DNA of 64,000 nucleotides, taken from NCBI GenBank assembly GCA_031266345.1, contig JAISBD010000007.1, positions 4,377 through 68,376 of the forward strand, read 5' to 3'. Every line of letters begins with the position of its first letter. The stretch's first letter is position 1. Below the pieces are notes generated by a model. It did no database searches. It saw only the letters and a list, made by a program, of their open reading frames with translations, and was not told where the DNA came from. A program made the translations under genes and the position numbers. Below are positions 32,404-55,438 of the stretch, one piece after another. The DNA is from Puniceicoccales bacterium. GTDB lineage: Bacteria; Verrucomicrobiota; Verrucomicrobiia; Opitutales; JAIRKQ01.

Positions 32404-34006
32404 TGCGCATCGCCTCATCCACCGATGTGAGGCCGCTTTTAATTTTCATCAAAGCGTCACTTTTCAATGTCAGCACGCCATTTTCAGCGGCAATGGTGCG
32501 GATTTCCGCCTCCGATTTTCGAGTGGCGATGGCTTCGCGCAGAGCATCGCTAGCGTCGAGGATTTCGAAGATTCCCACCCTGCCGTAGTATCCCAAACCG
32601 TCGCAGTGGTCGCATCCCTGTGCACCGAAGGCATCGGCCAAGTCGGCACCAAAAATTTGCTCCGCTTCTCGGCGAGATATTGTTTGGGGATCCATCTTTT
32701 TGGCGCAGTGGGGGCACAGTTTCCTAACCAACCTCTGCGCAACAATGAGCCTAATTGCCGAGGATAGCAAAAATTCTTCCACGCCGATATCCCACAGTCT
32801 CGTGATGGCCCCGATGGAATCATTTGTGTGCAGCGTGCTCAACACGAGGTGGCCGGTGATGGACGCCCTAATCGCGATCTCGGCGGTTTCGCGGTCACGT
32901 ATCTCGCCGACCATGATGATGTCCGGGTCTTGCCGCAGGATGGAGCGCAGTACGCTAGCAAAAGTCAGGCCGATCTCCGGGTTTACCTGCGTTTGGTTGA
33001 CCTCCTGGATATCGTATTCTATGGGGTCTTCGACCGTCATCAGGCGCCGATTCGGCGTGCGCAGCGCCCGCAGGCATGCGCTGAGCGTGGTAGATTTTCC
33101 AGAGCCCGTCGGGCCGGTCACGAGGATGATTCCGTGCGGCCGCTTAAGTGCCCCCCTAAGCAGCCCGCTGCGCGCCTGGTCAAGGCCGAGATCATCCAAT
33201 TCGACCGGGCTATTATTGTTGGCGAGTATGCGCAAACTAACGCTTTCTCCGTAGGTTGTCGGCAAGGTCGATGCCCTAATATCGAGGGTTCCCCGGGGCA
33301 TTTTAAATAGGATTTTTCCATCCTGGGGGTGATGTTTTTCGGAAATGTTCATCCGTGCCATGATCTTTAGGCGTGAAATGATGGCCGCTTGAAAATTTTT
33401 CAGATTTTCCGGCACGCGGGCAACAACCAAATCCCCATCGACGCGGTACCTAATGATGAGGCTAGCCCTTTGCGGCTCGAAGTGCACGTCGGTCGCCCGT
33501 GCTCCGATGCACCGCCGCAGGAGATCATTGACAAATTTTATCACGGCGGCATCCTCATTTTCCATATCCTCCCGCTTCTGGACATCATCGGGACCCTGCG
33601 CCGCAACACCGGACAGACCAAAGCTCTCGGCAATAAATTTGCCAATGGCATCCGGGTAGGTGAGGGAGCATTCGATGCCGTACCCCGTGGTAGCGGTGAT
33701 CCAGCGCACCTGGCTATTCGCCAATGGCCAGCAAACAACAGCGGAAATCATATCCCCACCGGCGCCGATCGGTAAAAATTTATATTCCGTCACCAGCTGA
33801 TAGGGTATTTTGCTTAAAATTTCGCCGTCAACGGTGAATTTTTTTATAATCTTCAGCCCACTCATCTCCGCCAAAGTGTGCAGAGCTGAATCTTCGCTGC
33901 GATCCAAAAACTTCGCCAATTCACCCAGGCGCAAAGCGGGGTCGGCGGATAAAATTTGTGCCGCCTCCCTGCCGAATTTTGAGTAGAAAATCGAATCTTC
34001 CATCAC
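32390..34006 (-). CDS. gspE: Type II secretion ATPase GspE
   Basis: 538 aa. Walker A GPTGSGKSTTL, Asp/His boxes (VGEIRDRETAEIAIRASITGHLVLSTLHTND) and the tetracysteine CPHC...CDHCDG motif typical of GspE. The start is GTG 34006 or ATG 34003. Confidence 0.92.
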   Translation of the reverse strand: MMEDSIFYSKFGREAAQILSADPALRLGELAKFLDRSEDSALHTLAEMSGLKIIKKFTVDGEILSKIPYQLVTEYKFLPIGAGGDMISAVVCWPLANSQVRWITATTGYGIECSLTYPDAIGKFIAESFGLSGVAAQGPDDVQKREDMENEDAAVIKFVNDLLRRCIGARATDVHFEPQRASLIIRYRVDGDLVVARVPENLKNFQAAIISRLKIMARMNISEKHHPQDGKILFKMPRGTLDIRASTLPTTYGESVSLRILANNNSPVELDDLGLDQARSGLLRGALKRPHGIILVTGPTGSGKSTTLSACLRALRTPNRRLMTVEDPIEYDIQEVNQTQVNPEIGLTFASVLRSILRQDPDIIMVGEIRDRETAEIAIRASITGHLVLSTLHTNDSIGAITRLWDIGVEEFLLSSAIRLIVAQRLVRKLCPHCAKKMDPQTISRREAEQIFGADLADAFGAQGCDHCDGLGYYGRVGIFEILDASDALREAIATRKSEAEIRTIAAENGVLTLKSDALMKIKSGLTSVDEAMRIIEH

Positions 34007-34455: not shown

Positions 34456-36264
34456 TCACCTCATTGGTTTTCTTTTTTTTAATTTTTGTTTTACCGGAAC
34501 GACTGACTCGCCGCCGCCATTGCCGATTGTAAACTTTCCATCGGAGCAGTAGGCATCGAGTTCACAGTTCAGCGCACTATTTTCTGCGGCTTTCCTGGCG
34601 TACTCCCCCTCCACGGACGGATTCGCCACAATGGATGGGCGAATAAAAATTAGCAGTTCATTTGTTCTTTCGCTGCGGGCTTTTGGGGAAAATAGAGCAT
34701 CGCCGACGATGGGCAAGTGGCCCAGGAGCCACAATTTCCCCTTCGAATCGGTGCACTCTTTCTCCTGTAAGCCGGCCAAAACAACGACATCCCCATCGTG
34801 CACGCTCACGAAGGATACGGCTTGCCGCTTCGTTATCACCGGCTGCTTGTTTTTATCGATCTCCACGCTGTCACTAATTTTTTGTATGAGCTGGTCAATT
34901 TTCATTTGAATTACGCCATTGGGGCCGATCAGCGGGATGACAGTCAGCTCTATGCCGATGTCCTTGTAGCTAACGCTATTCCTAATCGACTGCTGATTGG
35001 CCAGATCGGTAAAATTTGCCGTTATCACGGGGCGGGATTCGCCGACTTTTATTGAAGCTTCGCGGTTATGGGTCGTGACGATCGTTGGGGCCGATAAAAC
35101 TTTTACATTTTCGCAATTCTTCGCCCTATTGAACACGTAGCCTAGGGAAAAATTTTTCAGCGTCCCCCCAAAAATGAGCCCACTTTTGATGCTACTGTTT
35201 GAAGCACTCTGGCCGATGAAAGCTAGGCGGTGACTGCCGGTGGGACTGGGGGTCTGGGAGGGGGCCGCCGACATGTCCACATTGTAGGATATTCCCAGCG
35301 ATTCCAGCCCAGAAGTCTCGTTATCGGCGAGGGTTACCTGGGCGATGACAACCTCGATGCGCACCTGCTCGAGCAGGATGTCGAGCCCGTCGATAATTTT
35401 TTCGACGTGGTTTATGTCCTGCCGCGTCCCGCAAACGATTATGGAGTTGCTATATTTATCGTGCTCCACGGCGACGGAGCTGGAAAACTTAAATTCCTGC
35501 GAGTCTGGTTTGGCGTCGCTTTGGGAAGCTGCATTCGGCGGTGTAATTTTGCTTTGGTCACCCCCTTCGCTGCGCACCCTATCTTCAATTTTCCCCACTC
35601 CGAGGGGCCCACTCGCAGGGACCAATCGGTGAAGAATGGCCGAAATATTCTCCGCACTGCCATGTTTTATGCGAAAAATCTTCGATTCAATCTTCGAGCA
35701 GCGCGGCCTGTCCACGTTTTTAATCAGCAGCTCCACGCGTTGCAAATTCGACAGCCTATCCGTGATTACTAAGCAGTTTGAATCCTCAAAAATTAGGATT
35801 GAGGAGCTGATCGGTGACAATATGGGGCGGATAATCCTGGCAAAATCTCCGGCGGAAATGTATTCCAGGGTAAATAATTTCGCATAAAATTTTTCACCGA
35901 CTGGCAGGGACAGAGCCGATACTTCCAGCCATTCCGGCGCATGCGTGGCCGCCATGCGCGCGCTCACGGCTCGCAAAATTCCATCTCCGCGGTCGATAAC
36001 CGCAACCCCATTCATGCTTAGGACGTTCTCCAATATCCGAGCGGCATCCCGCTGTGACAAATTTTGCCGAATTTGCATGGATAGTTTGGTGTTTGCGACG
36101 GATTGGTCGCATAAAACGGACTTGCTGGTCAACTTTTCCAAAATACACAGCACTTGGGGCAGCGATTCATCGGAGAATATCAAACTTTTTACCTCGCAGC
36201 AAATCAACGAACCGTAGAAACAATTCGCCGCAAGGAATACAAAAATATATTTCAACGTACCCAT
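34456..36264 (-). CDS. gspD: Type II secretion outer-membrane secretin GspD
   Basis: 602 aa. N-domain repeats, then the secretin core ...VVVLAGLQEKECTDSKGKLWLLGHLPIVGDALFSPKARSERTNELLIFIRPSIV. Confidence 0.9.
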   Translation of the reverse strand: MGTLKYIFVFLAANCFYGSLICCEVKSLIFSDESLPQVLCILEKLTSKSVLCDQSVANTKLSMQIRQNLSQRDAARILENVLSMNGVAVIDRGDGILRAVSARMAATHAPEWLEVSALSLPVGEKFYAKLFTLEYISAGDFARIIRPILSPISSSILIFEDSNCLVITDRLSNLQRVELLIKNVDRPRCSKIESKIFRIKHGSAENISAILHRLVPASGPLGVGKIEDRVRSEGGDQSKITPPNAASQSDAKPDSQEFKFSSSVAVEHDKYSNSIIVCGTRQDINHVEKIIDGLDILLEQVRIEVVIAQVTLADNETSGLESLGISYNVDMSAAPSQTPSPTGSHRLAFIGQSASNSSIKSGLIFGGTLKNFSLGYVFNRAKNCENVKVLSAPTIVTTHNREASIKVGESRPVITANFTDLANQQSIRNSVSYKDIGIELTVIPLIGPNGVIQMKIDQLIQKISDSVEIDKNKQPVITKRQAVSFVSVHDGDVVVLAGLQEKECTDSKGKLWLLGHLPIVGDALFSPKARSERTNELLIFIRPSIVANPSVEGEYARKAAENSALNCELDAYCSDGKFTIGNGGGESVVPVKQKLKKRKPMR

Positions 36265-36977
36265 CTTTCACCCAAAAATACCGCCTCAATTAGACATTTT
36301 ACATTCAAATTACCATCCTTTGCGGCGGTGAAGTGGACATCGCCCATCCTGGTGCCGTCGCAGGTAATGGCCTCGCTGAAATGCACAAACTCTGCCATGG
36401 AAACACTGCGCAGGGCGGCGTTCACCGATGCAATGGTAATTTCATTGACCCCATACCTGCGCTCGTCCGACAATTCAAATTTGCACCCACTTTCGGCGGC
36501 AACCTTTTCGATAAAGCTCATCAGGGAACTTCCCAAATTCCTATTACTTTTCAAGCGCTCGTGGGCATCGTCAAATTTCCGACTAATCTCATCCGCACCT
36601 TCGAGCCACTCACTTTGCTTGGCAGCTAAATCATTGTAGCAGGATATCGTCCTGCGCATTTTCAAAAAATTAGCACAGCTACATACTAGGCAAAGCAAAG
36701 TGAGGGAGAACAATCCAGCAAAGATAAAAAATTTGCAGCGCAAATGCACCAGTTTTAGCCACTCGGTGCAGCATCGGCGTTCGGCGATAAACCCAGTGCC
36801 CTTCTTTTTTACAAGTGATGGGAGCAATGAGGGCTGAGTCGGCCCCCACCCCCTTACTTTTAGCCACTTTAATAAATGCCTAATCCTATCTCTGCTTAAG
36901 TGGAACATGAATGGTAAAAAAAGCCCTATTGTCGCGGAAATGAACATTGGATGTTTCCGCTGAAGTAACGTTCGCAC
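36252..36977 (-). CDS. Bitopic inner-membrane protein, GspM-like (putative). True start probably internal.
   Basis: One TM (FFIFAGLFSLTLLCLVCSCANF) followed by a ~150-aa periplasmic domain. The ORF-track start overlaps the upstream gene by 92 nt. In-frame GTG at 36749 or TTG at 36743, just before the TM, would give a ~165-aa GspM-sized protein. Assignment is by size, topology and position only. Confidence 0.4.
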   Translation of the reverse strand: MRTLLQRKHPMFISATIGLFLPFMFHLSRDRIRHLLKWLKVRGWGPTQPSLLPSLVKKKGTGFIAERRCCTEWLKLVHLRCKFFIFAGLFSLTLLCLVCSCANFLKMRRTISCYNDLAAKQSEWLEGADEISRKFDDAHERLKSNRNLGSSLMSFIEKVAAESGCKFELSDERRYGVNEITIASVNAALRSVSMAEFVHFSEAITCDGTRMGDVHFTAAKDGNLNVKCLIEAVFLGERWVR

Positions 36978-37824
36978 AACTCCTTACGGCGCTGCGATAA
37001 TTTTCCACCGAACCAACGGACTGCCCGTATCCCTTGATCTTCAGGGTTTTTTTATCGACGTCGCAGTGAACATCGGTGAATAAAATATCGTCTGGGCGGA
37101 CCCTATTCAGCGTTTCCAATGAAGTTAAACAAAAATTTTCCTGGGAGTAAAATTTGGATATGTGCTCGAGGAAAGCGTGCTTCGAAATAATGCGCGCAAC
37201 TTCAGCCTCTCGCCCGTCGAGCAACATTTTAAACCTTCCAAACTTCAGGTGGGTGCAAAAAAATATTCCCCAAGCTAGCAACAATAACCCTATTCCTATT
37301 AGGCAAAAGCGAATCCCGTGGTCTAAAAATTTCGAAAATTTTCTCAAAAATTTTGCGTGACTTTTTTGCTTAAATTCCTTTAAGTTGGCATTGAAAACTA
37401 TGGGACTCAGCGCATCGAGGCAAAAATATCCCTCGGGACAATGGAAAACTATGCTATCATCCCGATTCACCCTTGCGCGCACCATCGATAGATCGTGCCC
37501 CACCACCATGCTGGGGAAAAAATCAGGAAAAATGTAGCTATCTTCCGTTGAAAAAAATTGCTCAATTCTGCGCTTGTAGGCGATGAATATGGTCACTTTG
37601 GGTCCAGCGGCGAAAAATCCGTAGGAGACATCGGCGAGCGAAAATGGGCTAACCGCTTCCACGCGAAGTCTAGCAAAGTGCTCCAAATCGCGATTTGACT
37701 TGAGCGGCTTTTCAAAGGAAACTTCATCGATAAAAAAGTATTCCCGCCCTACAAAACGTACTTTACCACGTTTGCGATAGTGACGTTTTAGGGTGCAAAA
37801 TGATTTTCTAAAAAAATAGCTCAC
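36886..37824 (-). CDS. Bitopic inner-membrane protein, GspL/PilN-like (putative)
   Basis: 312 aa. A ~170-aa cytoplasmic part, one TM (IRFCLIGIGLLLLAWGIFFCTHL) and a ~115-aa periplasmic part. Located between the GspK-like and GspM-like genes. Assignment is by topology and position. Confidence 0.4.
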   Translation of the reverse strand: MSYFFRKSFCTLKRHYRKRGKVRFVGREYFFIDEVSFEKPLKSNRDLEHFARLRVEAVSPFSLADVSYGFFAAGPKVTIFIAYKRRIEQFFSTEDSYIFPDFFPSMVVGHDLSMVRARVNRDDSIVFHCPEGYFCLDALSPIVFNANLKEFKQKSHAKFLRKFSKFLDHGIRFCLIGIGLLLLAWGIFFCTHLKFGRFKMLLDGREAEVARIISKHAFLEHISKFYSQENFCLTSLETLNRVRPDDILFTDVHCDVDKKTLKIKGYGQSVGSVENYRSAVRSCANVTSAETSNVHFRDNRAFFTIHVPLKQR

Positions 37825-37873: not shown

Positions 37874-38746
37874 TCAAAACTTGCTTGCCTGAGAAACAAC
37901 CTCGAAGGGAAACCCGTGCCAACTGCGAAGGGGGTCGTATTTTACGGTGTAATTTTCCGCCAGTTTTATGCCATCCATTTCAGTGGCGATGGACAAACTA
38001 AAGCAGAGGTTTTTCTCCATGAAAAGTCCAGGATTGTGAACAATGCAGCCCCTGGAATAGAGCTCAGTGAAAACATCATTCCGTGAATTTTCACTTAAAA
38101 ATGAAGTATTTTTGAGCACCGCTTTTGCGTCATCGGGGCGCCAGCTCTCCAGTGCACAAATTGCATTTAGCAGCTCATCGCCGATCCCATGCAGCGCCAC
38201 GGCATCCGCATTTTGGCAAGTAATATTTTTTGCAAAAACCTGCCATTTTTCCGTAAAAAAACCATTCCCATCGATAAACACACGGCTAAACGTCGGCAAG
38301 GTGAGCAGGTGCTCAATTTTCGCCGGTCCCAACTTCTTCGCCCTGAACAGTTCTTCCAGTTCGCCAATCAACGATATAACATCTTGATAATCAAGCCATA
38401 ATGCAAAAAACAACTGTTCGAGCAAGTTTAAAAATTCAGGTTTTAGGGGAATTTTATTATCCTCCGGTGCAATGAAGAAGTGGTTGCCTTCCCCCAAATT
38501 ATCCCCAATGCATCGCTCAATTTTTTCCCTGCATTCCTCCATGCTGCAGTCTTTTGTCAAATGGGAATAGAGGTTAGCAATTACAATTGACAAAACCGAA
38601 TCCCTCCTTATGCGCAAGTCAAGATATGGATCGATTTGCCCAATGTAGGAAATTTCGTTGTCAACAACGCGTAAGAAAGAGACCGCCAGCATGCCCATGA
38701 CCAGCACCACTCCCAACACAAGTACCAAAATACTTCCCTTGCGCAT
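37874..38746 (-). CDS. GspK-like minor pseudopilin (putative)
   Basis: MRKGSILVLVLGVVLVMGMLAVSFLRVV has the R-G-S-x-L-(hydrophobic)n GspK/PilX-type N-terminus without the G/F-x-x-x-E prepilin motif. ~290 aa, as for GspK. I prefer the ATG at 38746 to the ORF-track start at 38782. Confidence 0.5.
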   Translation of the reverse strand: MRKGSILVLVLGVVLVMGMLAVSFLRVVDNEISYIGQIDPYLDLRIRRDSVLSIVIANLYSHLTKDCSMEECREKIERCIGDNLGEGNHFFIAPEDNKIPLKPEFLNLLEQLFFALWLDYQDVISLIGELEELFRAKKLGPAKIEHLLTLPTFSRVFIDGNGFFTEKWQVFAKNITCQNADAVALHGIGDELLNAICALESWRPDDAKAVLKNTSFLSENSRNDVFTELYSRGCIVHNPGLFMEKNLCFSLSIATEMDGIKLAENYTVKYDPLRSWHGFPFEVVSQASKF

Positions 38747-38790
38747 GGACATGCAGTTTGGCAGGACAGGCGATAAATGCAATAAATTCC

Positions 38791-39582
38791 ATGAAAAATA
38801 GATTCACGTCAAGGTGCTGTGGGTTTACTCTCCTGGAAGTTTTGGTGGCACTATCCCTCATCGCTTCCATCTCCGCTCTATCTTTTTACTTCTTCATCAG
38901 CATAAGTGAGCGCCATAAGCTTTCCCTCGAGAACACAGCGATTGACCGAGAATTGCACATGCTAACGGACATCATTTCCGAAGACCTATCCTGCATCATT
39001 CTCATAGATAAGGGATTCCCCGCCTTTGAATTTAAATCCGACGATGAGCAGCAAAAGTTTTTTATCTCATTTTTTTCCTCGAATAATGAGGAGCACATAA
39101 CGAAAGCTTTTCAATATTGCATCGGAACAACCGATAACTCGCGCAAAATTTTCACAAAACTCGAACTATCTGCCGCAGATTCCCTTTTTATGCAGAACAC
39201 AATGAATCAGCAAAGCTCGCTCCATAAAAATTTTTTGGAATATGCACCGGTTATGGTGAGAGCATTGGGTGGAAAATTGCTGAATTTCAGCATAAGGATC
39301 GCTGTGAAAACACCAACCGGCGGTATTTTCATATCACCGACAAACACCGATTTGACTTACAAAAACGGCTGCTTGCACTACAAAAACAAAGAAAAGGGAA
39401 CGGTAATGCACATAAAGGGCACGCCGCTATTCATAGACATCACCGTGCGAGCCCTCACCAATGCAACCGAGCAAAAACTATCCTCGAAACAATTTAAATC
39501 AAAGCGCGACCGTGCCATATTCCTAGCCGCAGAAATGCGAAAGAGTTGCCGAAGAATAGCGATCAGGTCCCACTCCTTCTAA
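38791..39582 (+). CDS. Pseudopilin with prepilin-type N-terminal cleavage/methylation motif (GspH/J-like)
   Basis: MKNRFTSRCCG/FTLLEVLVALSLIASISALSFYFF is the classical G-F-T-L-x-E prepilin peptidase site. 263 aa. Divergent from the GspK-like gene (44-nt spacer). Confidence 0.75.
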   Translation: MKNRFTSRCCGFTLLEVLVALSLIASISALSFYFFISISERHKLSLENTAIDRELHMLTDIISEDLSCIILIDKGFPAFEFKSDDEQQKFFISFFSSNNEEHITKAFQYCIGTTDNSRKIFTKLELSAADSLFMQNTMNQQSSLHKNFLEYAPVMVRALGGKLLNFSIRIAVKTPTGGIFISPTNTDLTYKNGCLHYKNKEKGTVMHIKGTPLFIDITVRALTNATEQKLSSKQFKSKRDRAIFLAAEMRKSCRRIAIRSHSF

Positions 39583-46428: not shown

Positions 46429-47751
46429 CTACCATTTTTGGTGGCGATAAAACTTGGAATATTTCGTTTGTGATTTTGAGATTACCGGTACCCGCTTAGC
46501 GCTTGGCACCTGCTTAGCGTCGGGTGTCTGCTTAGCGCCGGGTGTCTGCTTAGCGTCGGGTGTCTGCTGAGCATCTTGCCTAAACATCTTCTCAAACCAT
46601 CCTTGCTTAGCATCTTTTTGTGGAACTGGCGCTTCCTCACTTTTTGAGGTTGCCGGCACCTGCTTAGCGTCTGGCGCCTGTTTAGCGTCTGGTGTCTGCT
46701 TAGCGTCTGGTGTCTGCTGAGTATTTTTGCTAAACAGCCTCCCAAACCATCCTTGCCCAGCATCTTTTTGTGGAACTGGCACTTTCTCACTTTTTGAGGT
46801 TTCCGGTACCTGCTTAGCGTCTGGTGTCTGCTTAGCGTCTGGCGTCTGCTTGGTATTTTTGCTAAACGGCCACTTAAACCATCCTTTCCCAGCACTTGCT
46901 TTTGATTTAGGTGAACTTGGACCCTTAGCAGATGAGTCTTTGGATGAACTTTTAGCAGTGGAAGCAGGTTTTATTCCAAAGTATATGGCAACAGGTAAGG
47001 CGATAGCAATGGCAGCGGTCAAAATATACTTTATTACTTTCCTCCTATTCCATGGCTGAGCTCCGCCGGATGGCTGAGTTTCGTCGGATGGCCGGGTTTC
47101 GTCGGATGGCCGAGTTTCGTCGGCTGGCCGAGTTTCGTCGGATGGCCGAGCTCCGCCGGATGGCTGAGTTTCGTCGGATGGCCGAGTTTCGTCGGACGGC
47201 TGAGTTTCGTCGGATGGCCGAGTTTCGTCGGCTGGCCGGGTTTCGTCGGACGGCTGAGTTTCGTCGGATGGCCGAGTTTCATCGGATGGCCGAGTTTCGT
47301 CGGCTGGCCGAGCTTCGTCGGCTGACCGGGCTTCACCCCCAAACTGGGGTACGCTAAATGGCCGGGCTTCACCCCAAAACTGGGATACGCTAAATGGCCG
47401 GGCTCCACCCCCAAACTGAGTTTCGCCAAATGGCCGGGCTCCACTCCTAAACTGAGTTTCGCCAAATGGCTGGGCTCCACTCCTAAACTGAGTTTCGCCC
47501 TGCGACTTAGGATTAGCTCTGCCCTGCGACTTAGGATTAGCTCTGCCCGATGGCTTGAGCTTAGCTCTGCCCGATGACTTGGCCTCCGGCAACCGAACAC
47601 TCAATTGAGTCGACGCCACACGCTTTGAGGTTCCCGGTTCTTTAATAGCTGCCGACTTTTTAGGTCTCACTTGAGGAGATCGAACAGGGCTGCTGTTTTG
47701 AGAGTCATACATTTTACCACTTCTTGTTATTATTGAAGATCCAGTTTCCAT
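46429..47751 (-). CDS. Hypothetical single-pass membrane repeat protein with nested tandem repeats and three GWFxxxF[SR][KQ] motifs
   Basis: 440 aa. N-terminal GETQFRSGA[QR]PF-type repeats, ~15 E[TA][RQ]P[SA]D hexapeptides, a TM (VIKYILTAAIAIALPVAIYFGI), then GKGWFKWPFSKNTKQ / GQGWFGRLFSKNTQQ / KQGWFEKMFRQDAQQ. Each motif is flanked by (QTPDAK)n. Confidence 0.6.
   Translation of the reverse strand: METGSSIITRSGKMYDSQNSSPVRSPQVRPKKSAAIKEPGTSKRVASTQLSVRLPEAKSSGRAKLKPSGRANPKSQGRANPKSQGETQFRSGAQPFGETQFRSGARPFGETQFGGGARPFSVSQFWGEARPFSVPQFGGEARSADEARPADETRPSDETRPSDETQPSDETRPADETRPSDETQPSDETRPSDETQPSGGARPSDETRPADETRPSDETRPSDETQPSGGAQPWNRRKVIKYILTAAIAIALPVAIYFGIKPASTAKSSSKDSSAKGPSSPKSKASAGKGWFKWPFSKNTKQTPDAKQTPDAKQVPETSKSEKVPVPQKDAGQGWFGRLFSKNTQQTPDAKQTPDAKQAPDAKQVPATSKSEEAPVPQKDAKQGWFEKMFRQDAQQTPDAKQTPGAKQTPDAKQVPSAKRVPVISKSQTKYSKFYRHQKW
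47054..47330 (-). repeat. 18-bp tandem repeat (~15 units) encoding the ETRPSD hexapeptide
   Basis: The plus strand reads ggc[ct]gagtttcgtcgg[ac]t reiterated head-to-tail. It generates spurious ORFs in several frames (47034..47600 -, 47052..47357 +). Confidence 0.9.
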
Positions 47752-48579: not shown

Positions 48580-49329
48580 GTGGGCCGATCCGAATTTTTG
48601 TTCTTTCCTTTTAGAGAGAAAGGGCGGTGGTGTTCTTTGAAATTTTTTAGTCTGTTTTTGCTGCTGTGCCTGTGTGGCTGCAAGCGGGAAACTACTCTGG
48701 GTGATGAGGAGCTATCGGATCCGGAGTATCTCTTTGCCGTTCAACAAATTAGGGAAGGAAACGAAGATGGTGCTTTGCTCTCATTTTTGCATGTAATAGC
48801 TAGAAAGGAAAGCACAGCAAATTCGCATTTGCATGTCGGGCGCATATATTTGGATAGGCAAAATGACCCGATCTATGCCATTTATCACTTCCGTGAGTAT
48901 TTACTGCGGGCAAAAAATTCGAAAGAAGCCGTTGTTGTCAAACAGCTCATAGACACTGCTAAAAAAAAATTTATACGCAGTTTGCCTGGACATCATTGCG
49001 AGCTAAATGCTCACGTGGAATTGATGGAGGTCGCTAGGCGGCTACGGGAAGAAAATATCGCTTTGAAGCACAGGTTGAGGGGCTTTGAAGAACGGTGCAA
49101 ACTGTTGGAATCCCGATTGGAAGGCGAATTTCCGGCTGTTGCCACCGGCAAACATTTTGAGGGGGAGAGGCAAATCAGGCATGCCGTGCGAGTGGGGGAT
49201 ACGCTGTCGAAGATAAGTCAAAAGTATTACGGTACGCCGGCGCAGTGGAAGAAAATTTTTGAGGCCAACCAAGATGCGATCCCATTTCCCCATGCTTTGA
49301 CCGTGGGGCAGGAGTTGATAATTCCTTGA
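48580..49329 (+). CDS. LysM-domain lipoprotein with TPR-like/coiled-coil middle region
   Basis: C-terminal LysM: HAVRVGDTLSKISQKYYGTPAQWKKIFEANQDAIPFPHALTVGQELIIP. No ATG start. GTG at 48580 or, better, in-frame TTG at 48637 gives MKFFSLFLLLCLCGC (lipobox L-C-G-C). Confidence 0.75.
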   Translation: MGRSEFLFFPFREKGRWCSLKFFSLFLLLCLCGCKRETTLGDEELSDPEYLFAVQQIREGNEDGALLSFLHVIARKESTANSHLHVGRIYLDRQNDPIYAIYHFREYLLRAKNSKEAVVVKQLIDTAKKKFIRSLPGHHCELNAHVELMEVARRLREENIALKHRLRGFEERCKLLESRLEGEFPAVATGKHFEGERQIRHAVRVGDTLSKISQKYYGTPAQWKKIFEANQDAIPFPHALTVGQELIIP

Positions 49330-49340
49330 ATATGAGCATA

Positions 49341-52127
49341 TTATAGCCATCTAAATAGTATGATATTAAATCGGCGCCCAAGCTTTTTATTTACTTCGGA
49401 AAGGTTTACACTGGTGGGATCGTTTTCACCTGCGTTTGCAAATGTTGGCATGCGTTGCACTACGACTTCGCAGCACCTTGCATGGTTCCCCCATGAACCC
49501 TTTGCTGCTATTTTAAACGTGTCACCGCGGACGGTGATGAAATGTGCAAGTGCTTGTAAAACATCAGCTTGGCTTAAAACATTTTCCAGTCCTTCCTCCA
49601 AGTACCCGCTGGCCGCTCCATCGTTGAACCAAGCTTTATTTTTGCTAAAAGAGATGTAGTGTTTGCAAGTACCACGATTAATATTTGAGTCAAAAATGGC
49701 TTGTTGAAGCAGACCGCAGGTTGCGCCATCGGCCGACAAACGCCTGTTGATGAACGCGCTCAAAGTTGGAAAAAGTGCTTGCCGTTTTACTAGGGTGGCA
49801 ATATTTTTGGCGAGAATTCTCACATCGTACCTGGAAAAAGTGGCACATTGATTGGCATTTGCGCGGTAAATTCTCGGAAAAATTATGTCGCCGCGATTGT
49901 TTGTTCTTGAAGATAGATAGGCTTCCCAGGCTTCTTCGCAGGTGGAATGCACGTTAAAACTGCCCTTTATGAGCAGGGTTTCCGGCTTTATTTCCGTGTC
50001 CAAAATTTTAAATCGCCGATTAACCAACTTATTATTTGCCCTATTTAGGGTCGAGCAGAAGAAGTTGTTAAAAAAGGTTTCGTTCAAAAGATAGGCGTAA
50101 TCGAACAGGGACTCCACCTTGCAATGGGACGGCCAAATGCCCTGGGGGACGTTTTGAAATGTCGTGTAATTTGTTGGTATGTAAGGATTAGGACTGGAAT
50201 TGCCCAGGCATGTGCTTGGCAAATATCCCAGCGGTGCCCAATTTACGTGCCGCAGGGTAGCGACGCTTAAAACGCCGTGGTCGCGGCTCGGAACGTCGAA
50301 TAGCACCAAGCCATCCAGGTAGCGCAGCAGCTGCTGGTCGAATGAAGCTTTGCTGTCCGTGAAGATTGTCTGCCAGGACCAATTAGCAGCTATGTTTCCC
50401 TGACCAAAAAATATGGAAGATGGGTCTTGGAAAGCAGTGCGATTGGCGTAGGGAGCGCGGGGGTTAGCAAAAGCTAGCCAGCGGATACCGGTCATCGCTT
50501 GGGCACCTTCGATGGTGCCAATTTTCATGGCGGCGGACAGGGTAAGCAGCAATTTTTCATTTTCCGCCGGCTGGAATGTAAATGTCAAATTTTGATTAGC
50601 ATTTGCCGGGGTGAGCTGGGCAATTTCCTGCAATATTTCCTGCGTGGGTCGGTGCGTTAGCCGGATATAAAATTCTTGCCAATTGCGGGCTTGGGAGCCA
50701 TTTTGGTCCGTGCATGATATGGTGAAACTTGAATAATCCGATGCCAACATGTCAGTTTTTATTTGCAAGCAATTGTCGCAATCCCCTGCTGCGGAGATAG
50801 CTCTATCCGTGGGAGATAATTCGGTGTCTAGGGGCAGAGAGAAGATTTTCACCTCCCCCGCCTTGAAGGAATCCCTAAAATTCAGCACAAATATTGGCCG
50901 CAAATGCCGCTCAATTTCCTCTGCGCACAGCGGCAGGGTTAAAATTTTTTCTGGGACGTTTGGCTGGCGCGCTGTCCCTTTGATTGTTAGGCAAATTTTG
51001 CTGTCATTATTTCGTGCTGCAATGAGCGCATTTAATTGATAATCAGCCTGCTGCAACGATATGTTATGGGGGTTCCACAGGGAATATTTGGGACAAATTT
51101 TTATGGCCAACTTATCGTCGATTATGGCTGCTGATATGGAAAAACTAAGCTGGGTAACGATGGGATAAATGCCGTGCTGCACAGATGCGCCCAGGTCGTC
51201 TCCCAAATTGTGCAGGGTTCTCTGGGAATAATCGACCAAATACTGCGGACGATAGAGGGGATAAGTTGGCCTGACTGGGATCTCTTTGCCACTTATTTGA
51301 TTTTTTAGGCGGAAGAAGGATTGTAAAAATTTCCACGTGGGCGGGGGTGCCGGCAAGGACGCTTTCCCCTCGAAAACATAGGCATTTGCCGGAAAGTCTG
51401 TTTCCAACAACCAGGTCGATAGGTCCGTTTTCAAGCCATTGAGCGAAGATGGCACCCCATGGGAATGCAGGGTGTAAGAATCGGAATGCTGTGCTATTCC
51501 TTCCCCCACTGTGCCATCTAGGAGCGAAAATTGTTCCAAAAAATCAATGTTTCCACGCACCATTTCACTCTGATTTTTAGGGGAAAAAATTGCCGCAACG
51601 CGCTTATCTCCCGAGCATTGTGGGCACAGGAGTTGGACATAATCATCCCTCGTATCGTCTTGCAAAGACAGGTCAATTTTTTGCGATTCGTCTTGAATGG
51701 AAAATTTCCAATGGAATTTATCCGCGGCTATGCGCATTTGTGAATCGGGTTTTTCCGCTGCCTTGCCCAAACTTCCGGCATCGTAATCCGCGGTGAGCCA
51801 GCGCGAAAATTTTATAGCATATTTATCGTCATTTTTAGATGCGTGCCATATGCCGATGTCATTGCCGTTTAGGAAGTTATCGCCGTAAATATTGCTTCTT
51901 TTGGCTGAAATTGCGCCATCCGGACCGGCGGATTCCTGCAGGCGTGCCAGTGCAATTTTCAATGCAAATTCGGCGGTCCGCTTGGCGAGTTTTTCGGAAA
52001 AACTTTTTCCTAACTGGGCATGGTAGGCTAAATTTTGGTATGCCATTGCGCACATGAACAGGGCCAGCATAGCCGTGGCGTTGATTACGAATAGTAAGGC
52101 GAAACCGCGATGTTTAGGTGGCGACAT
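49341..52127 (-). CDS. Large (928-aa) hypothetical protein with a PilX/GspK-type N-terminal anchor
   Basis: MSPPKHRGFALLFVINATAMLALFMCAMAYQNLAYHAQLGKSFSEKLAKRTAEFALKIALARLQE has the R-G-x-A-L + hydrophobic helix + A..AE.AL..A...L pattern of the PilX_N/GspK N-terminal domain. The remaining ~860 aa are unrecognised. Confidence 0.55.
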   Translation of the reverse strand: MSPPKHRGFALLFVINATAMLALFMCAMAYQNLAYHAQLGKSFSEKLAKRTAEFALKIALARLQESAGPDGAISAKRSNIYGDNFLNGNDIGIWHASKNDDKYAIKFSRWLTADYDAGSLGKAAEKPDSQMRIAADKFHWKFSIQDESQKIDLSLQDDTRDDYVQLLCPQCSGDKRVAAIFSPKNQSEMVRGNIDFLEQFSLLDGTVGEGIAQHSDSYTLHSHGVPSSLNGLKTDLSTWLLETDFPANAYVFEGKASLPAPPPTWKFLQSFFRLKNQISGKEIPVRPTYPLYRPQYLVDYSQRTLHNLGDDLGASVQHGIYPIVTQLSFSISAAIIDDKLAIKICPKYSLWNPHNISLQQADYQLNALIAARNNDSKICLTIKGTARQPNVPEKILTLPLCAEEIERHLRPIFVLNFRDSFKAGEVKIFSLPLDTELSPTDRAISAAGDCDNCLQIKTDMLASDYSSFTISCTDQNGSQARNWQEFYIRLTHRPTQEILQEIAQLTPANANQNLTFTFQPAENEKLLLTLSAAMKIGTIEGAQAMTGIRWLAFANPRAPYANRTAFQDPSSIFFGQGNIAANWSWQTIFTDSKASFDQQLLRYLDGLVLFDVPSRDHGVLSVATLRHVNWAPLGYLPSTCLGNSSPNPYIPTNYTTFQNVPQGIWPSHCKVESLFDYAYLLNETFFNNFFCSTLNRANNKLVNRRFKILDTEIKPETLLIKGSFNVHSTCEEAWEAYLSSRTNNRGDIIFPRIYRANANQCATFSRYDVRILAKNIATLVKRQALFPTLSAFINRRLSADGATCGLLQQAIFDSNINRGTCKHYISFSKNKAWFNDGAASGYLEEGLENVLSQADVLQALAHFITVRGDTFKIAAKGSWGNHARCCEVVVQRMPTFANAGENDPTSVNLSEVNKKLGRRFNIILFRWL

Positions 52128-52162: not shown

Positions 52163-53320
52163 CTATTTCGCTTCCACGCTGCCAAATAGCGGGAGGGAAG
52201 GGTCTTTTATGGGGAACACTACCGCGATTTTCGTGCCCAAACCCGGCTGACTTTGTATGGTCAAAATGGCGCCATGTTCACGCAAAATGCGCTCCACTAT
52301 CATGAGCCCAAGTCCGTTCCCTTGTTTTTTTGTAGAAAAGTATGGGCTGGCGATTTTTAGCATGTTTTCCTCGGAAATCCCCGAGCCATTATCGGCGAAC
52401 TCTAGGATGAGTTGAGTTGCATTTAATTTGCTGCTAATAAAGATGTTACCGTGACTTGGCAGCGCCTCCATCGAATTTTTTATGATGTTGAAAAATGCCT
52501 GTTTTAATTGTTGCTCATCGGCTAAAATTGGGGGCAGGGCGGAGAAATTTTTATGCACCGCAATGCCATTGTTAACCAGTTCCGGCGATAAGACTTGCAG
52601 CACGTGATCCACGATGGCCGCGATGTTTGTTGGCCGTAAAAACAACTTTTGCGGGCGAATCGCTTGCAAAAAATTTTTAATAATGCCATCCAAACGATTG
52701 ATCTCTTCTCCGCAGATGTCGATGGATTTTTGCAGCTGCTCCCGCTTGTCCGATGGGGTGATGTGATTGATTTGCTTGCCCATTAATTGCAGGCGTAACC
52801 AAATGGCATTCAATGGATTACCCAATTCATGCGCCACACCACTCGCCAGTAAATTGATGGTCGAGAAGCGCTCATTTTCAACCCGTTGCTCGATTATGTC
52901 ATTCGTTGCCGTCGCATCGCGGATGACAAGGATGAAAAAATCACCCCCGTGCTCCGTGGCGAGGCGCATGCCGCTCATGCTCAAAATTTTCTTGTGGGGA
53001 TATTTTATTTCTAACTCTTTGATAGCGAATGGGATATCCTTTTTGCATTTTGCCATGATTTGCTTCAAAAAAGACAAATCGGGAACATATTGCTCCAGAG
53101 CTTGCCGCTGGTCGGTGACCCCAAGGATTTCCTTGGCAGCGTTGTTGCTGTACTCAATTGTCCAAGAATTCGTGAGGATGAGGACGCCGTCATTCAACAG
53201 GTCAAACACCCTGTGGCAAACTTCTTGCTCGTGGTACAATCGCCGGATTAGTAGGTGTAACTCTCTGGCATCCAGCGCATTAAGTTTTTCGAAAAGTTTC
53301 TTAAATTTGTTTTCCTTCAT
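52163..53320 (-). CDS. Cytoplasmic PAS-domain sensor histidine kinase (AtoS/NtrB-like); no response regulator in the window
   Basis: 385 aa from MKENKFKK. PAS region, H-box GVAHELGNPLNAI, N-box FFNIIKNSMEAL, G1 DNGSGISEE, G2 GNGLGLMIVERI. The ORF-track start (53761) lies inside xerC/D and is rejected. Confidence 0.88.
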   Translation of the reverse strand: MKENKFKKLFEKLNALDARELHLLIRRLYHEQEVCHRVFDLLNDGVLILTNSWTIEYSNNAAKEILGVTDQRQALEQYVPDLSFLKQIMAKCKKDIPFAIKELEIKYPHKKILSMSGMRLATEHGGDFFILVIRDATATNDIIEQRVENERFSTINLLASGVAHELGNPLNAIWLRLQLMGKQINHITPSDKREQLQKSIDICGEEINRLDGIIKNFLQAIRPQKLFLRPTNIAAIVDHVLQVLSPELVNNGIAVHKNFSALPPILADEQQLKQAFFNIIKNSMEALPSHGNIFISSKLNATQLILEFADNGSGISEENMLKIASPYFSTKKQGNGLGLMIVERILREHGAILTIQSQPGLGTKIAVVFPIKDPSLPLFGSVEAK

Positions 53321-54237
53321 AGTGTGTCGCGCGGGTGAAACTGCCGATGCCCGCCAATCAAGCGCTGCCCATCGACGGCGGTGTAAATTTGAGTCGTGGC
53401 AATGTTTGCGTGGCCGAGCATTTCCTGTATCGCGCGCATATCGGCCCCATTTTCCAGCATATGTGTGGCGAAGGAATGGCGCAGGGAATGGGGCTTTACA
53501 CTTTTTGTGATGCCCGCCCGTTGCGCATATTTTTTGAGATGCAGCCAAAAAGTTTTTCGTGAGATTGTGCGGCCTCTTATGGTTATAAATAATTGGCTGC
53601 CAGTGAGATGTGAGATAAGCTTTGGCCGTGCAGAGGACAAATAGCTGCTGAGTTTTTCCACACCGGCGCGGCCGATTGGCACGATCCTTTCCCGGCTGCC
53701 CTTCCCATATATGCGCACAAATTTGTTCTCCAAATCGATGGCTTGTATGAGTAATTCGCACAGCTCGGAGACACGCAATCCGCTGCTGTACATGAGCTCG
53801 AGCATGGCGGCATCGCGAATCCCCAGCGTGCCTGTGCAGTCGGGGGCGCTCAGCAAAGCGTCGATTTCACTCAGCGAAAGGACATCTGGCAAAACCCGAT
53901 AGTAGTGGGGGCGCTGCAAGAAGAGCGCGACATTTTCCCCCACAATGTTGGTTTGTTTGCAAAATTTGAAGAATGACCTGACAGTCGATATTTTGCGTGA
54001 AATTGTGGCACTTGCTAAAAAATGGCAGGCAAGATTTTCCAACCAGCTGCGCAGGTGGCCCAGGGTGACGTCGCGCCAGTGGAGTACGCCGTGCCCATGC
54101 AGCATCTCAGCCAATTGCAGGAGGTCGCCCTCGTAGCTATCGGCGGTGTTATCGCTGTACCCGCGCTCCAGGTTGACGCTGACTAAAAAGGCATCGATTG
54201 GATCGCGCAAGGTGCCTGCCGTAGATTTTTCACTCAC
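53317..54237 (-). CDS. Tyrosine site-specific recombinase XerC/XerD
   Basis: 306 aa. SYEGDLLQL core-binding N-domain, GLRVSELCEL, HSLRHSFATHMLENGADMRAIQEMLGHANIATTQIYTAV (R..HxxR..H..Y). Confidence 0.9.
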   Translation of the reverse strand: MSEKSTAGTLRDPIDAFLVSVNLERGYSDNTADSYEGDLLQLAEMLHGHGVLHWRDVTLGHLRSWLENLACHFLASATISRKISTVRSFFKFCKQTNIVGENVALFLQRPHYYRVLPDVLSLSEIDALLSAPDCTGTLGIRDAAMLELMYSSGLRVSELCELLIQAIDLENKFVRIYGKGSRERIVPIGRAGVEKLSSYLSSARPKLISHLTGSQLFITIRGRTISRKTFWLHLKKYAQRAGITKSVKPHSLRHSFATHMLENGADMRAIQEMLGHANIATTQIYTAVDGQRLIGGHRQFHPRDTL

Positions 54238-55438
54238 TTTTCAATACCCGTATTTTTGCGTGAAAATTTTCTTGCAGCAGATTTTGCGTGGACTTTGGTA
54301 ATCGGCTACTTGTGGGCGTATTTTCTTTGGCATCAACAAATTGTGCACTTTGTTTGCGCAAAATTTGCAAAATGGAATCGATGGCCCTGCTCTGCGACTG
54401 CTCCGTCGCATGCAGCAGCGCAGATTCAAAATTTGTCCGCTCGTCGAACCCGGACTTTACGCCGTCCTTTGCGTAGTGTAGCGCTTCTAAAATTCTCACT
54501 TCCCGCTCGGGGAAAATTTCATTATTCGTTGATAATAAATGGGATAATTGCGAGTGAAGCCGGGATTCCAAGTCGCATAGCACGCGGTATAAGTCGCAAT
54601 TTGAATCGACTATTTCTTTGCACAGGGAGAGGATTTTTTCATAATTTCCGCTGCGCATGGCGCCAATAATGGCATCGAGTTTGGCGTCGGAAATGAGGCC
54701 GTAGGCGGATAGGATGTCCGATTCTTCGATTTTGTTTGCGCAAAAGGCGGCCATTTGGTCGAGTGTCGACTGCGCATCGCGCACGCCCCCATTTGCCAGG
54801 CGCACTATCAATTTTAGTGCATCATCCGAAATTTCTATGCCGTCCAAATCGGCGATTTCACGCAGTTTTCCGTGCAAAACTGCCCCATCAACGGGGCGGA
54901 AAGAAAAGCGCTGGCAACGGGATGTTATGGTGGGCAAAACTTTGTTTGCCTCCGTGGTTGCAAATATAAATTTGACGTGGGCGGGGGGCTCCTCGAGGGT
55001 CTTCAAAAGCGCGTTAAAAGCGGCATTGGAGAGCATGTGTACCTCGTCTATGATGTATATTTTATAGCGGCATTTGACCGGCGCGTACTGGCATTCTTCG
55101 CGCAAACTCCGGATTTGGTCGACGGAATTATTGGAAGCGCCGTCTATTTCGATGACATCTAGGCAACATCCTTGGGCGATTTCCGAGGCGGTTTCACCGT
55201 TCGCATCGAATGTGGCGGAGGGGCCATTTTCTGCATTTAGAGCCGTGGCGAACAGGCGTGCCGTCGTAGTTTTTCCAGTTCCGCGGGGACCAACAAATAG
55301 GTAAGCATGCGCTATCTTTCCCGTGTTTATCGCATTTTTAAGCGTGCGCACGATGTAACCTTGGCCGACTAGCTCGTCAAAAGTTTTCGGCCGCCACCGG
55401 CGCGCAATCACCCGATATTCGTAATTATCATTTACCAT
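54230..55438 (-). CDS. dnaX: DNA polymerase III subunit gamma/tau (short form)
   Basis: RRWRPKTFDELVGQ, HAYLFVGPRGTGKTTTARLFA, IYIIDEVHMLS, FIFATTE, SRCQRFSF. Confidence 0.92.
   Translation of the reverse strand: MVNDNYEYRVIARRWRPKTFDELVGQGYIVRTLKNAINTGKIAHAYLFVGPRGTGKTTTARLFATALNAENGPSATFDANGETASEIAQGCCLDVIEIDGASNNSVDQIRSLREECQYAPVKCRYKIYIIDEVHMLSNAAFNALLKTLEEPPAHVKFIFATTEANKVLPTITSRCQRFSFRPVDGAVLHGKLREIADLDGIEISDDALKLIVRLANGGVRDAQSTLDQMAAFCANKIEESDILSAYGLISDAKLDAIIGAMRSGNYEKILSLCKEIVDSNCDLYRVLCDLESRLHSQLSHLLSTNNEIFPEREVRILEALHYAKDGVKSGFDERTNFESALLHATEQSQSRAIDSILQILRKQSAQFVDAKENTPTSSRLPKSTQNLLQENFHAKIRVLKSE

Follow-up and report, generated by a model that had tools for sequence, protein, structure and literature searches.

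The 64,000-nt stretch analyzed here (the window; contig JAISBD010000007.1 of the Puniceicoccales bacterium assembly GCA_031266345.1) carries on its minus strand an open reading frame (ORF) of 928 amino acids (aa) that runs from an ATG to a stop codon. Its product is identical to the NCBI entry MDR1255510.1 (LBJ94_01090), which is annotated as a "hypothetical protein" on a 69-kb contig of a Puniceicoccales metagenome-assembled genome (MAG). The same window encodes GspE, GspD and GspF of a type II secretion system (T2SS) or related pilus machine. We favor, with moderate confidence, the reading that the 928-aa gene encodes a giant cap-type minor (pseudo)pilin of the GspK/PilX class, which would serve this GspD/E/F machinery and display its large head at the filament tip. 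The first-pass annotation of the window had already proposed a giant minor pseudopilin; its pilin-like anchor is supported, while it had missed that the protein belongs to a superfamily, that the window has another K-like gene, and that the head shows faint landmarks of GspK. That annotation had placed the ORF exactly where we find it, had quoted its N-terminal sequence correctly, and was right about the T2SS/pilus genes at 32-39 kb and 57.9 kb. The features discussed below are collected in Table 1.

Table 1. Features of the window (positions are those of the window; residue numbers are those of the 928-aa protein)
Feature	Positions	Strand	Basis
Coding sequence of the 928-aa protein, stop codon included	49341..52127	-	ORF list; exact sequence look-up; full-length homologues
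Residues 1-8 (MSPPKHRG), short basic leader ending in near-invariant Gly; predicted prepilin-peptidase site G8|F9	52104..52127	-	Column counts; weak in-register profile matches of homologues; cleavage inferred
Residues 9-67, pilin-type alpha-1 helix (9-31 hydrophobic, 32-67 amphipathic)	51927..52103	-	AlphaFold2 (AF2); hhalign; permutation test
Residues 72-154, four beta-strands ending in conserved DESQK(I/V)(D/N)L (D146, E147, K150); candidate first half of pilin sheet	51666..51914	-	AF2 strands 72-76, 91-99, 102-110, 138-146; conservation
Residues 323-534, ~14-strand beta-sandwich with near-invariant LWNP(H/Y)N and PGEVKIFS	50526..51161	-	AF2, pLDDT mostly 86-98; invariant N352, P353, G424, E425
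Residues 720-868, helical, resembling helix-hairpin-helix / GspK SAM-like motif	49524..49970	-	AF2 helices 731-738, 766-783, 789-793, 806-814, 853-860
Residues 869-928, three C-terminal beta-strands (RGDTFKI.A.G / CEVVVQRMP / GRRFNIILFRWL); candidate second half of pilin sheet	49344..49523	-	AF2 strands 870-879, 882-896, 918-927
LysM-domain lipoprotein, convergent on the 928-aa gene; lipobox LCGC, TPR-like middle region	48580..49329	+	Pfam LysM 4.5e-8
PAS/HisKA/HATPase_c histidine kinase, directly upstream of the 928-aa gene	52163..53320	-	Pfam/NCBIfam; homologous kinases at same place
xerC/D	53317-54237	-	
dnaX	54230-55438	-	
gspF platform protein; position relative to the 928-aa gene kept in L003, L005, L007, L008	57847..59103	+	Pfam T2SSF 2.8e-34
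gspE ATPase	32390-34006	-	Pfam T2SSE 6.6e-128
gspD secretin	34456-36264	-	Pfam Secretin 4e-36, Secretin_N, GspD N0 domain
ORF between gspD and K-like ORF, no family	36252-36977	-	
312-aa ORF between gspD and K-like ORF	36886-37824	-	Faint PilN match (E 0.007)
290-aa ORF in gsp cluster, K-type N-terminus (MRKGSILVLVLGVVLVMGML, no Glu5), PEDNKIPL motif	37874..38746	-	Sequence
274-aa pseudopilin, canonical G|FTLLE	38758..39582	+	Pfam N_methyl 6e-6; TIGR02532 above cut-off; weak gspJ

The N-terminus carries most of the argument. At the predicted junction the protein reads G|FALLF, with Phe and not Glu at position +5. In an alignment of 68 sequences, with members down to 20-25% identity with the 928-aa protein, this junction is nearly invariant (G8 in 46/49 sequences, F9 in 45/49, A10 in 44/49 and L11 in 47/53) and is followed by ~22 hydrophobic residues; position +5 is taken by I, F, A, V or L, and Glu5 occurs in none of the 58 sequences that cover it. 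The helix that begins here keeps A48, A52, L56, A59, L63 and Q64 in its further course, and AF2 models a single continuous helix from residue 7 to residue 67. When all six frames of the window were scanned for a basic or polar residue, a Gly, a hydrophobic residue and then a long hydrophobic run, the 928-aa ORF was the sole match.

Profile comparisons of the homologues lead to the same end of the protein. Fourteen of 20 match NF037980 (T2SS_GspK, positions 1-67) and/or TIGR02600 (Verru_Chthon cassette protein A, positions 1-60) with E values of 2e-7 to 6e-3, nearly always N-terminally and in register, at scores far under the curated cut-offs. That is, NF037980 is matched at 16-22 bits against a cut-off of 130 and by the N-terminus only, save for one homologue whose match reaches GspK profile position 128, and TIGR02600 is matched by 13 of the 20 at 15-29 bits against a cut-off of 332, twelve of them on positions 1-60 and one (P0035) on positions 228-270 instead. 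PilX_N (PF14341) was matched by two of 27 N-terminal segments of the family (best E 2.6e-4), and the best hits, non-significant, of a PDB sequence search with the N-terminal profile were full-length Geobacter pilins aligned at the G|F junction (E ~0.3). Our comparison set of bona fide GspK sequences numbered three, one of them an Acinetobacter GspK that was the sole useful yield of a tblastn search against phage records; hhalign of the family against these three gave 81% probability (E 1.2e-5), reliable over ~75 columns corresponding to the helix. In a permutation test the N-terminal helix scored 33.8 against 9.05 +/- 1.86 for column-shuffled GspK, a value reached by none of 100 shuffles (z ~13). 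The conservation of G-F-A-L, the profile matches, the hhalign result and the AF2 helix thus support the earlier claim of a PilX_N/GspK-type N-terminus, in which a prepilin-type (class III) signal leads into an alpha-1 helix that, as in GspK and PilX, lacks Glu5. Among the curated tests of membership, this N-terminal one of the GspK type is the only one to which the family answers.

The remainder of the protein was modeled with high confidence from the 68 diverse sequences (mean predicted local distance difference test score, pLDDT, 90.5; predicted template modeling score, pTM, 0.89; 661 residues at pLDDT >=90), while a model from 12 close homologues only was unusable (pLDDT 47). After the helix (7-67), AF2 places four strands (72-146), an alpha/coil region (150-320), a beta-sandwich (323-534), a conserved loop-rich region (535-720), a helical region (720-868) and the final strands (870-927), and judging from the model, residues 72-146 and 870-927 probably form one pilin beta-sheet around an insert of ~720 residues. 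The C-terminal strands are the most conserved part of the superfamily, with invariant R867, D869, G877, E887, Q891, R892 and R918. Upstream of them, the helical region bears the motifs G.FNV(N/H)S(T).. and L(A)..I...VK.R.(P)F..L..F(I/V)NR, and at this helix-hairpin-helix (HhH)-like site the C-terminal segments of homologues gave sub-threshold Pfam matches to HHH_6 in four of ten cases (best E 0.005), to HHH_3 in one and to T2SSK in one (E=0.17). The beta-sandwich drew only beta-sandwiches of carbohydrate-binding modules (CBMs), lectins and glycosidases, none of them significant, in the PDB profile search and in Foldseek. Structure prediction with Foldseek, which the first-pass annotation had suggested as a check, revealed no confident match to an unrelated enzyme family; the PilY1-like propeller that it had also considered was not detected, with no PilY1 family (PF05567) found by Pfam and no propeller-like C-terminus in the AF2 model.

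The same annotation had stated that the remaining ~860 aa match nothing, which holds for the curated libraries (Pfam, NCBIfam, PDB) but not for uncurated sequence space, where thousands of sequences match over the full length. An exhaustive hidden Markov model search returned 5,652 clusters (representatives at 50% identity) with E<=1e-3, of which 3,399 had E<=1e-30, the best-scoring members being mostly 1,050-1,370 aa long; the 928-aa protein belongs to an outlying branch of this superfamily with shorter members (~930-990 aa), found in Puniceicoccales/Opitutia MAGs. Close full-length homologues (34-67% identity, 915-988 aa) come from Puniceicoccales/Opitutales MAGs; the isolate names hint at bins from termite guts. 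The distant homologues, with 21-30% identity and 960-1,490 aa, can be aligned end to end and come from Akkermansiaceae, Luteolibacter, Prosthecobacter, Chthoniobacteraceae, Cerasicoccus, Thalassobacterium and other Verrucomicrobiota; cultured species that carry homologues are Luteolibacter arcticus, Cerasicoccus frondis and Thalassobacterium sedimentorum. All 29 loci from species-representative genomes belong to Verrucomicrobiota, a limit that is provisional because the locus scan relied on two peptide patterns from the close family. A profile search of the protein database added one sequence only, and that a partial one (P0036). Two consecutive ORFs take the place of a single homologue in several MAGs (L010 969-3850; L020; L022 7473-11164; L031 9968-13662), through frameshift, pseudogene formation or assembly error.

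One homologue, 28% identical over a third of the length of the 928-aa protein, bears the UniProt name "Verru_Chthon cassette protein A". We considered whether the larger relatives (Prosthecobacter, Akkermansiaceae, Opitutaceae, Cerasicoccus) are true TIGR02600 members and rejected this, as none reaches the cut-off. Since none of the 20 homologues comes near it and all matches but one are limited to the first 60 positions, we take the family, by its sequences, to be a separate and uncurated one that shares a pilin-like helix with TIGR02600. Literature searches on "Verru_Chthon" and on GspK in Verrucomicrobia yielded nothing relevant, and no paper was found on either family.

At the locus itself, the order dnaX, xerC/D, histidine kinase and 928-aa gene, with a 35-nt gap after the kinase, is as the first-pass annotation had it. 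The mechanically called kinase ORF (52163-53761, 532 aa) overlaps xerC/D by ~440 nt; translation most likely begins at the Met of MKENKF, near 53320, because homologous kinases are 381-398 aa long. Kinases of this length stand at the same position in L003, L005, L007 and L008, and L010 has a 201-aa piece cut by the contig end. With this start, dnaX, xerC/D and the kinase are joined by overlaps of 8 and 4 nt (the latter with the xerC/D stop). Consensus scans of the 35-nt gap between the kinase and the 928-aa gene found no promoter- or terminator-like site, and co-transcription with the upstream genes is therefore plausible. On the other side, the stop codons of the 928-aa gene and of the LysM lipoprotein gene are 11 nt apart. 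A search of the window for paralogues of the 928-aa protein found none.

The wider arrangement (gspF and a sulfatase on one strand; then DAGK, dnaX, xerC/D, kinase and the 928-aa homologue, facing the LysM gene) is kept in L003, L005, L007 and L008 (42-66% identity), with gspF ~6 kb from the homologue in all four, and a fifth locus on a short contig, L010, retains the part from the kinase to the LysM gene. The co-occurrence with T2SS genes to which the first-pass annotation had pointed is thus seen in the window and in the syntenic loci. The kinase precedes the gene in closer relatives only (35-67% identity); among the remaining Puniceicoccales-type loci, dxr takes its place in L002/L011 (34% identity, with SHMT after the homologue), L012 has a dnaX-like ORF, and none was found in L009. 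For this reason we rejected a functional link between the kinase and the 928-aa protein, and their adjacency is probably plain synteny. In each of the nine loci of the Puniceicoccales type the LysM gene lies within 2 kb of the homologue, including those with other genes upstream; its product could be a FimV/TsaP-like peptidoglycan anchor, or the linkage could be mere synteny. Outside the Puniceicoccales clade, the 1,100-1,490-aa homologues are almost always followed by a gene for a conserved secreted protein of ~235 aa without known family, which stands directly downstream in L001 (13148-13921 and 13985-14671), L004, L013-L029 and L031-L033, sometimes in two or three copies; neither the window nor the Puniceicoccales-type loci contain this gene. 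Of 33 loci inspected for pilin genes flanking the homologue, one has such a gene: in L032, from an Opitutaceae MAG, the gene at 5435-6784 (plus strand), immediately before that of a 1,491-aa homologue, encodes a 449-aa product bearing the canonical G|FTLVE motif.

GspD, GspE and GspF are most plausibly the machinery that the 928-aa protein would serve. In the gsp cluster, two ORFs between gspD and the K-like ORF are probably divergent components of the assembly platform (GspL/M or PilN/O-like). The 290-aa ORF that follows begins with MRKGSILVLVLG... and has homologues in Puniceicoccales only; it matched nothing in Pfam, NCBIfam or PDB, and hhalign of its family against that of the 928-aa protein aligned the N-terminus only (18% probability). 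From its sequence and place it is probably the divergent, canonical-size GspK of the system. The neighboring, divergent 274-aa pseudopilin is the only Glu5-type pilin found in the window by a six-frame motif scan, and it matches gspJ-type models, not those of cassette proteins B, C or D. Elsewhere in the window we noted a giant 2,791-aa ORF (13854-22229, plus strand) with no Pfam match at E<=0.001; a 440-aa ORF (46429-47751, minus strand) without Pfam match that consists almost entirely of tandem DNA repeats (periods 18, 36 and 150 nt) encoding PSDETR-like and QTPDAKQ-like peptides around one hydrophobic segment; and a FliR/Bac_export_1 family gene (921-1709, minus strand; E 1e-52), so that this Puniceicoccales genome has a component of a flagellar or type III export apparatus.

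It is important to note that several observations weigh against a cap-type pseudopilin. Searched as a whole or by its termini alone, the 928-aa protein matched no pilin, GspK, PilX_N or N_methyl model in Pfam and NCBIfam (TIGR02600, NF037980, T2SSK / T2SSK_1st and PF14341 among them), and it lacks the canonical Glu5 pilin signature (G|F-T-L-(I/L)-E; IPR012902, TIGR02532, PF07963 N_methyl). Sequence similarity to GspK is statistically solid for the N-terminal helix only. Beyond the helix, three collinear pairs of family and GspK segments were chosen by eye and each tested by hhalign against column-shuffled versions of the three GspK sequences: the strand with D-E-S-x-K-x-(N/D)-L against GspK "..L.D(A/E)(Q/S)..FNLN" scored 15.0 vs. 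8.96 +/- 1.94 (reached by 3/100 shuffles), "L..xI..LA..IV..VK.RGPF.SL..FVNR" against the GspK SAM/HhH-like "A..LLQ.RP..GW.....F" scored 17.8 vs. 9.38 +/- 1.63 (0/100), and the C-terminal strands of the two scored 11.5 vs. 8.98 +/- 1.88 (8/100), which is not significant. The first two pairs, which score above the shuffled controls, count in favor of the pseudopilin, and the results are consistent with a GspK-like ground plan, which is unproven because the regions were hand-picked and the GspK sequences were three. In structure, taking the GspK fold as a pilin fold with a domain inserted in its beta-sheet (references 3CI0_K / 5VTM_X), Foldseek of the AF2 model gave no PDB match at E<=0.001; GspK (3ci0_K) came second (E 0.03), which counts for the pseudopilin, though with probability 0.23 and TM 0.17. 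Nor was any significant match obtained when PDB was searched with sequence profiles of the whole family or of either terminal part. The strands at both ends of the chain, around a large insert, count for the pseudopilin too, but that they would join into one sheet is deduced from their order only. In genomic context, the gene does not stand in the gsp operon beside gspI/J and gspL; it is 11 kb away from the gspD/E cluster, behind housekeeping genes and a kinase, and that cluster has a 290-aa K-like ORF of its own, so the 928-aa protein would be a second cap-type subunit and not the sole GspK. Neither a prepilin peptidase nor a major pseudopilin was found in the window, and among the distant loci an adjacent pilin gene is absent from 24 of 25 and a T2SS gene (gspD/E/F) within 10 kb from all.

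Alternatively, the protein might be a bitopic protein of the inner membrane, anchored there by a signal that is not cleaved and carrying a large periplasmic domain that acts in the envelope independently of type IV filaments and possibly together with the LysM lipoprotein. Much of what has just been listed fits this alternative: the position among housekeeping genes outside the gsp cluster, the constant company of the LysM gene in Puniceicoccales-type loci, the lack, one locus aside, of pilin and T2SS genes within 10 kb of the distant homologues, and the absence of a direct pilin-model or significant structural match. Nonetheless, a mere signal anchor would leave unexplained why Gly-Phe-Ala-Leu is near-invariant at the junction of leader and hydrophobic segment down to 20-25% identity. 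Neither does it account for the in-register matches of the first ~60 residues to GspK/Verru_Chthon_A in most homologues, with the hhalign result, or for the pilin-like way in which the helix, with its conserved small residues, extends ~35 residues past the membrane. Hence, we regard this alternative, the main one, as rather unlikely, though credible enough to be kept in mind.

A second alternative accepts the pilin but not the machine, i.e., the protein would be the cap-type pilin of a type IV filament system that is peculiar to Verrucomicrobia, distinct from GspD/E/F and similar to the "Verru_Chthon cassette", with the Puniceicoccales copy as its remnant. The UniProt label of one homologue, the N-terminal matches to TIGR02600 positions 1-60, the pairing of nearly all distant genes with the ~235-aa secreted protein and not with gsp genes, and the Glu5 pilin directly upstream in L032 could all be read in this way. 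We consider it improbable, since no member comes near the TIGR02600 cut-off, the window has neither B/C/D cassette proteins nor the partner gene, and the reduced Puniceicoccales genomes keep the gene full-length at 34-67% identity, which argues for a working role with the remaining filament machine (GspD/E/F in the window). Finally, a Sec-exported soluble periplasmic or secreted protein, such as a carbohydrate-binding or -degrading enzyme cut at A27-M28-A29|Y30, would suit the A-M-A at residues 27-29 and the CBM, lectin and glycosidase accessory domains among the non-significant matches of the central sandwich, but is very improbable: the alignment has no conserved AxA cleavage site (column 27 is G/S/A, 28 is L/M/I and 29 is L/A/T), the ~22-residue hydrophobic stretch is long for a Sec h-region and is conserved at its start (G-F-A-L) and not its end, the AF2 helix runs unbroken through the putative cleavage site, no enzyme family in Pfam, NCBIfam or PDB matches significantly, and conservation, profile matches and helix all point to a pilin-type N-terminus.

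Returning to the cap-type pseudopilin that we favor, its closest counterpart is GspK, a pilin with an alpha-domain inserted in the pilin beta-sheet that has been proposed to sit at the pseudopilus tip (PMC8179133). The 928-aa protein shares with GspK a basic leader ending in Gly, a hydrophobic alpha-1 without Glu5, conserved small residues in alpha-1C, and, in the same order, a "D-E/A-S/Q-x-K/x-x-N/D-L" strand motif after the first strands followed by an HhH/SAM-like helical motif. In both, extra domain(s) lie between N- and C-terminal beta-strands (according to AF2 for the former and PMC8179133 for GspK). It differs from GspK in being three times longer, with a ~720-residue insert that includes a ~210-residue beta-sandwich which GspK lacks, in reaching no model cut-off, and in lying away from gspI/J/L in a window with a separate GspK-sized candidate. 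The alpha-domain of GspK reportedly comprises ~110 residues. PilX and the PilX_N minor pilins, which are typically ~170-200 aa long, have the same Glu5-less N-terminal pattern, whereas the 928-aa protein has neither a PilX_N match nor fimU/pilV/pilW/pilY1 neighbors.

Verru_Chthon cassette protein A (TIGR02600, uncharacterized) is likewise Verrucomicrobial, more than 1,000 aa long and endowed with the same kind of N-terminus. In TIGRFAMs, the Verru_Chthon cassette consists of protein A with the prepilin-type proteins B, C and D. By contrast, the present family has no adjacent B/C/D prepilin-type genes and pairs with the ~235-aa protein or, in Puniceicoccales, with nothing, and the bodies of the two families could not be aligned by HMMER. 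PilY1/PilC tip adhesins resemble the protein in size class (~100 kDa) and in their proposed place on a minor-pilin tip complex; PilY1, however, stands outside the pilins and ends in a beta-propeller, and neither the PilY1 family nor a propeller was detected in the 928-aa protein. Modular pilins are widespread, the largest in a survey having 860 residues (PMC8179133), compared to 930 to ~1,490 aa in the present family. Modular minor pilins such as Streptococcus sanguinis PilB/PilC, enterotoxigenic Escherichia coli (ETEC) CofB and Thermus ComZ also combine a pilin with bulky modules for ligand binding at the tip (PMC8179133), but theirs are Glu5/N_methyl pilins (IPR012902) with mostly C-terminal modules, whereas here N_methyl is unmatched and the modules are apparently inserted. 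That is, GspK/PilX-type cap pilins and pilins enlarged by modules were known already; what sets this family apart is the size, the seeming insertion of the modules, the lack of a solved structural relative and the abundance of a family that is nevertheless unstudied.

Under the reading that we favor, the preprotein would be inserted in the inner membrane, where a prepilin peptidase encoded outside the window would cut after G8, and the GspE/F machine would then take up the helix and so extract the protein from the inner membrane. In work on GspK and PilX, a missing Glu5 is what marks the top subunit; because Glu5 is missing here too, the 928-aa protein would take the tip of the (pseudo)pilus, probably atop a complex of other minor pseudopilins. 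The head exposed there would consist of the pilin sheet (72-146 with 870-927) and the ~720-residue insert with its alpha/coil, beta-sandwich, conserved loop-rich and HhH-like helical parts, and would most likely serve in ligand binding; the ligand would be a surface or polysaccharide in the case of adhesion, and otherwise a secretion substrate or the secretin. The role of an adhesin or substrate gate at the filament tip, which the first-pass annotation had proposed, is thus far an inference.

More tentatively, the family may represent an undescribed class of cap pseudopilin, so far seen in Verrucomicrobiota only, in which a GspK-like module carries a ~720-residue head of novel fold as the working end of the filament, for instance for adhesion or the capture of polysaccharides or substrates, and which the streamlined termite-gut Puniceicoccales would have kept as essential for host-associated life. 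Because cultured species carry homologues, the pilin prediction is directly testable. What a type II secretion system or a type IV pilus binds or secretes is set by the minor pilins at its tip, and to our knowledge almost all that has been learned about these pilins comes from Proteobacteria and Firmicutes. If they are cap pseudopilins, the members of this family, which spans at least 5,652 clusters without a Pfam or NCBIfam model and has a confident predicted structure without solved relative, would be the largest pilin-like subunits described. The finding, if true, would also provide a handle on how Verrucomicrobia, major degraders of polysaccharides in soil, water and guts, use T2SS- and type IV pilus-like machines.

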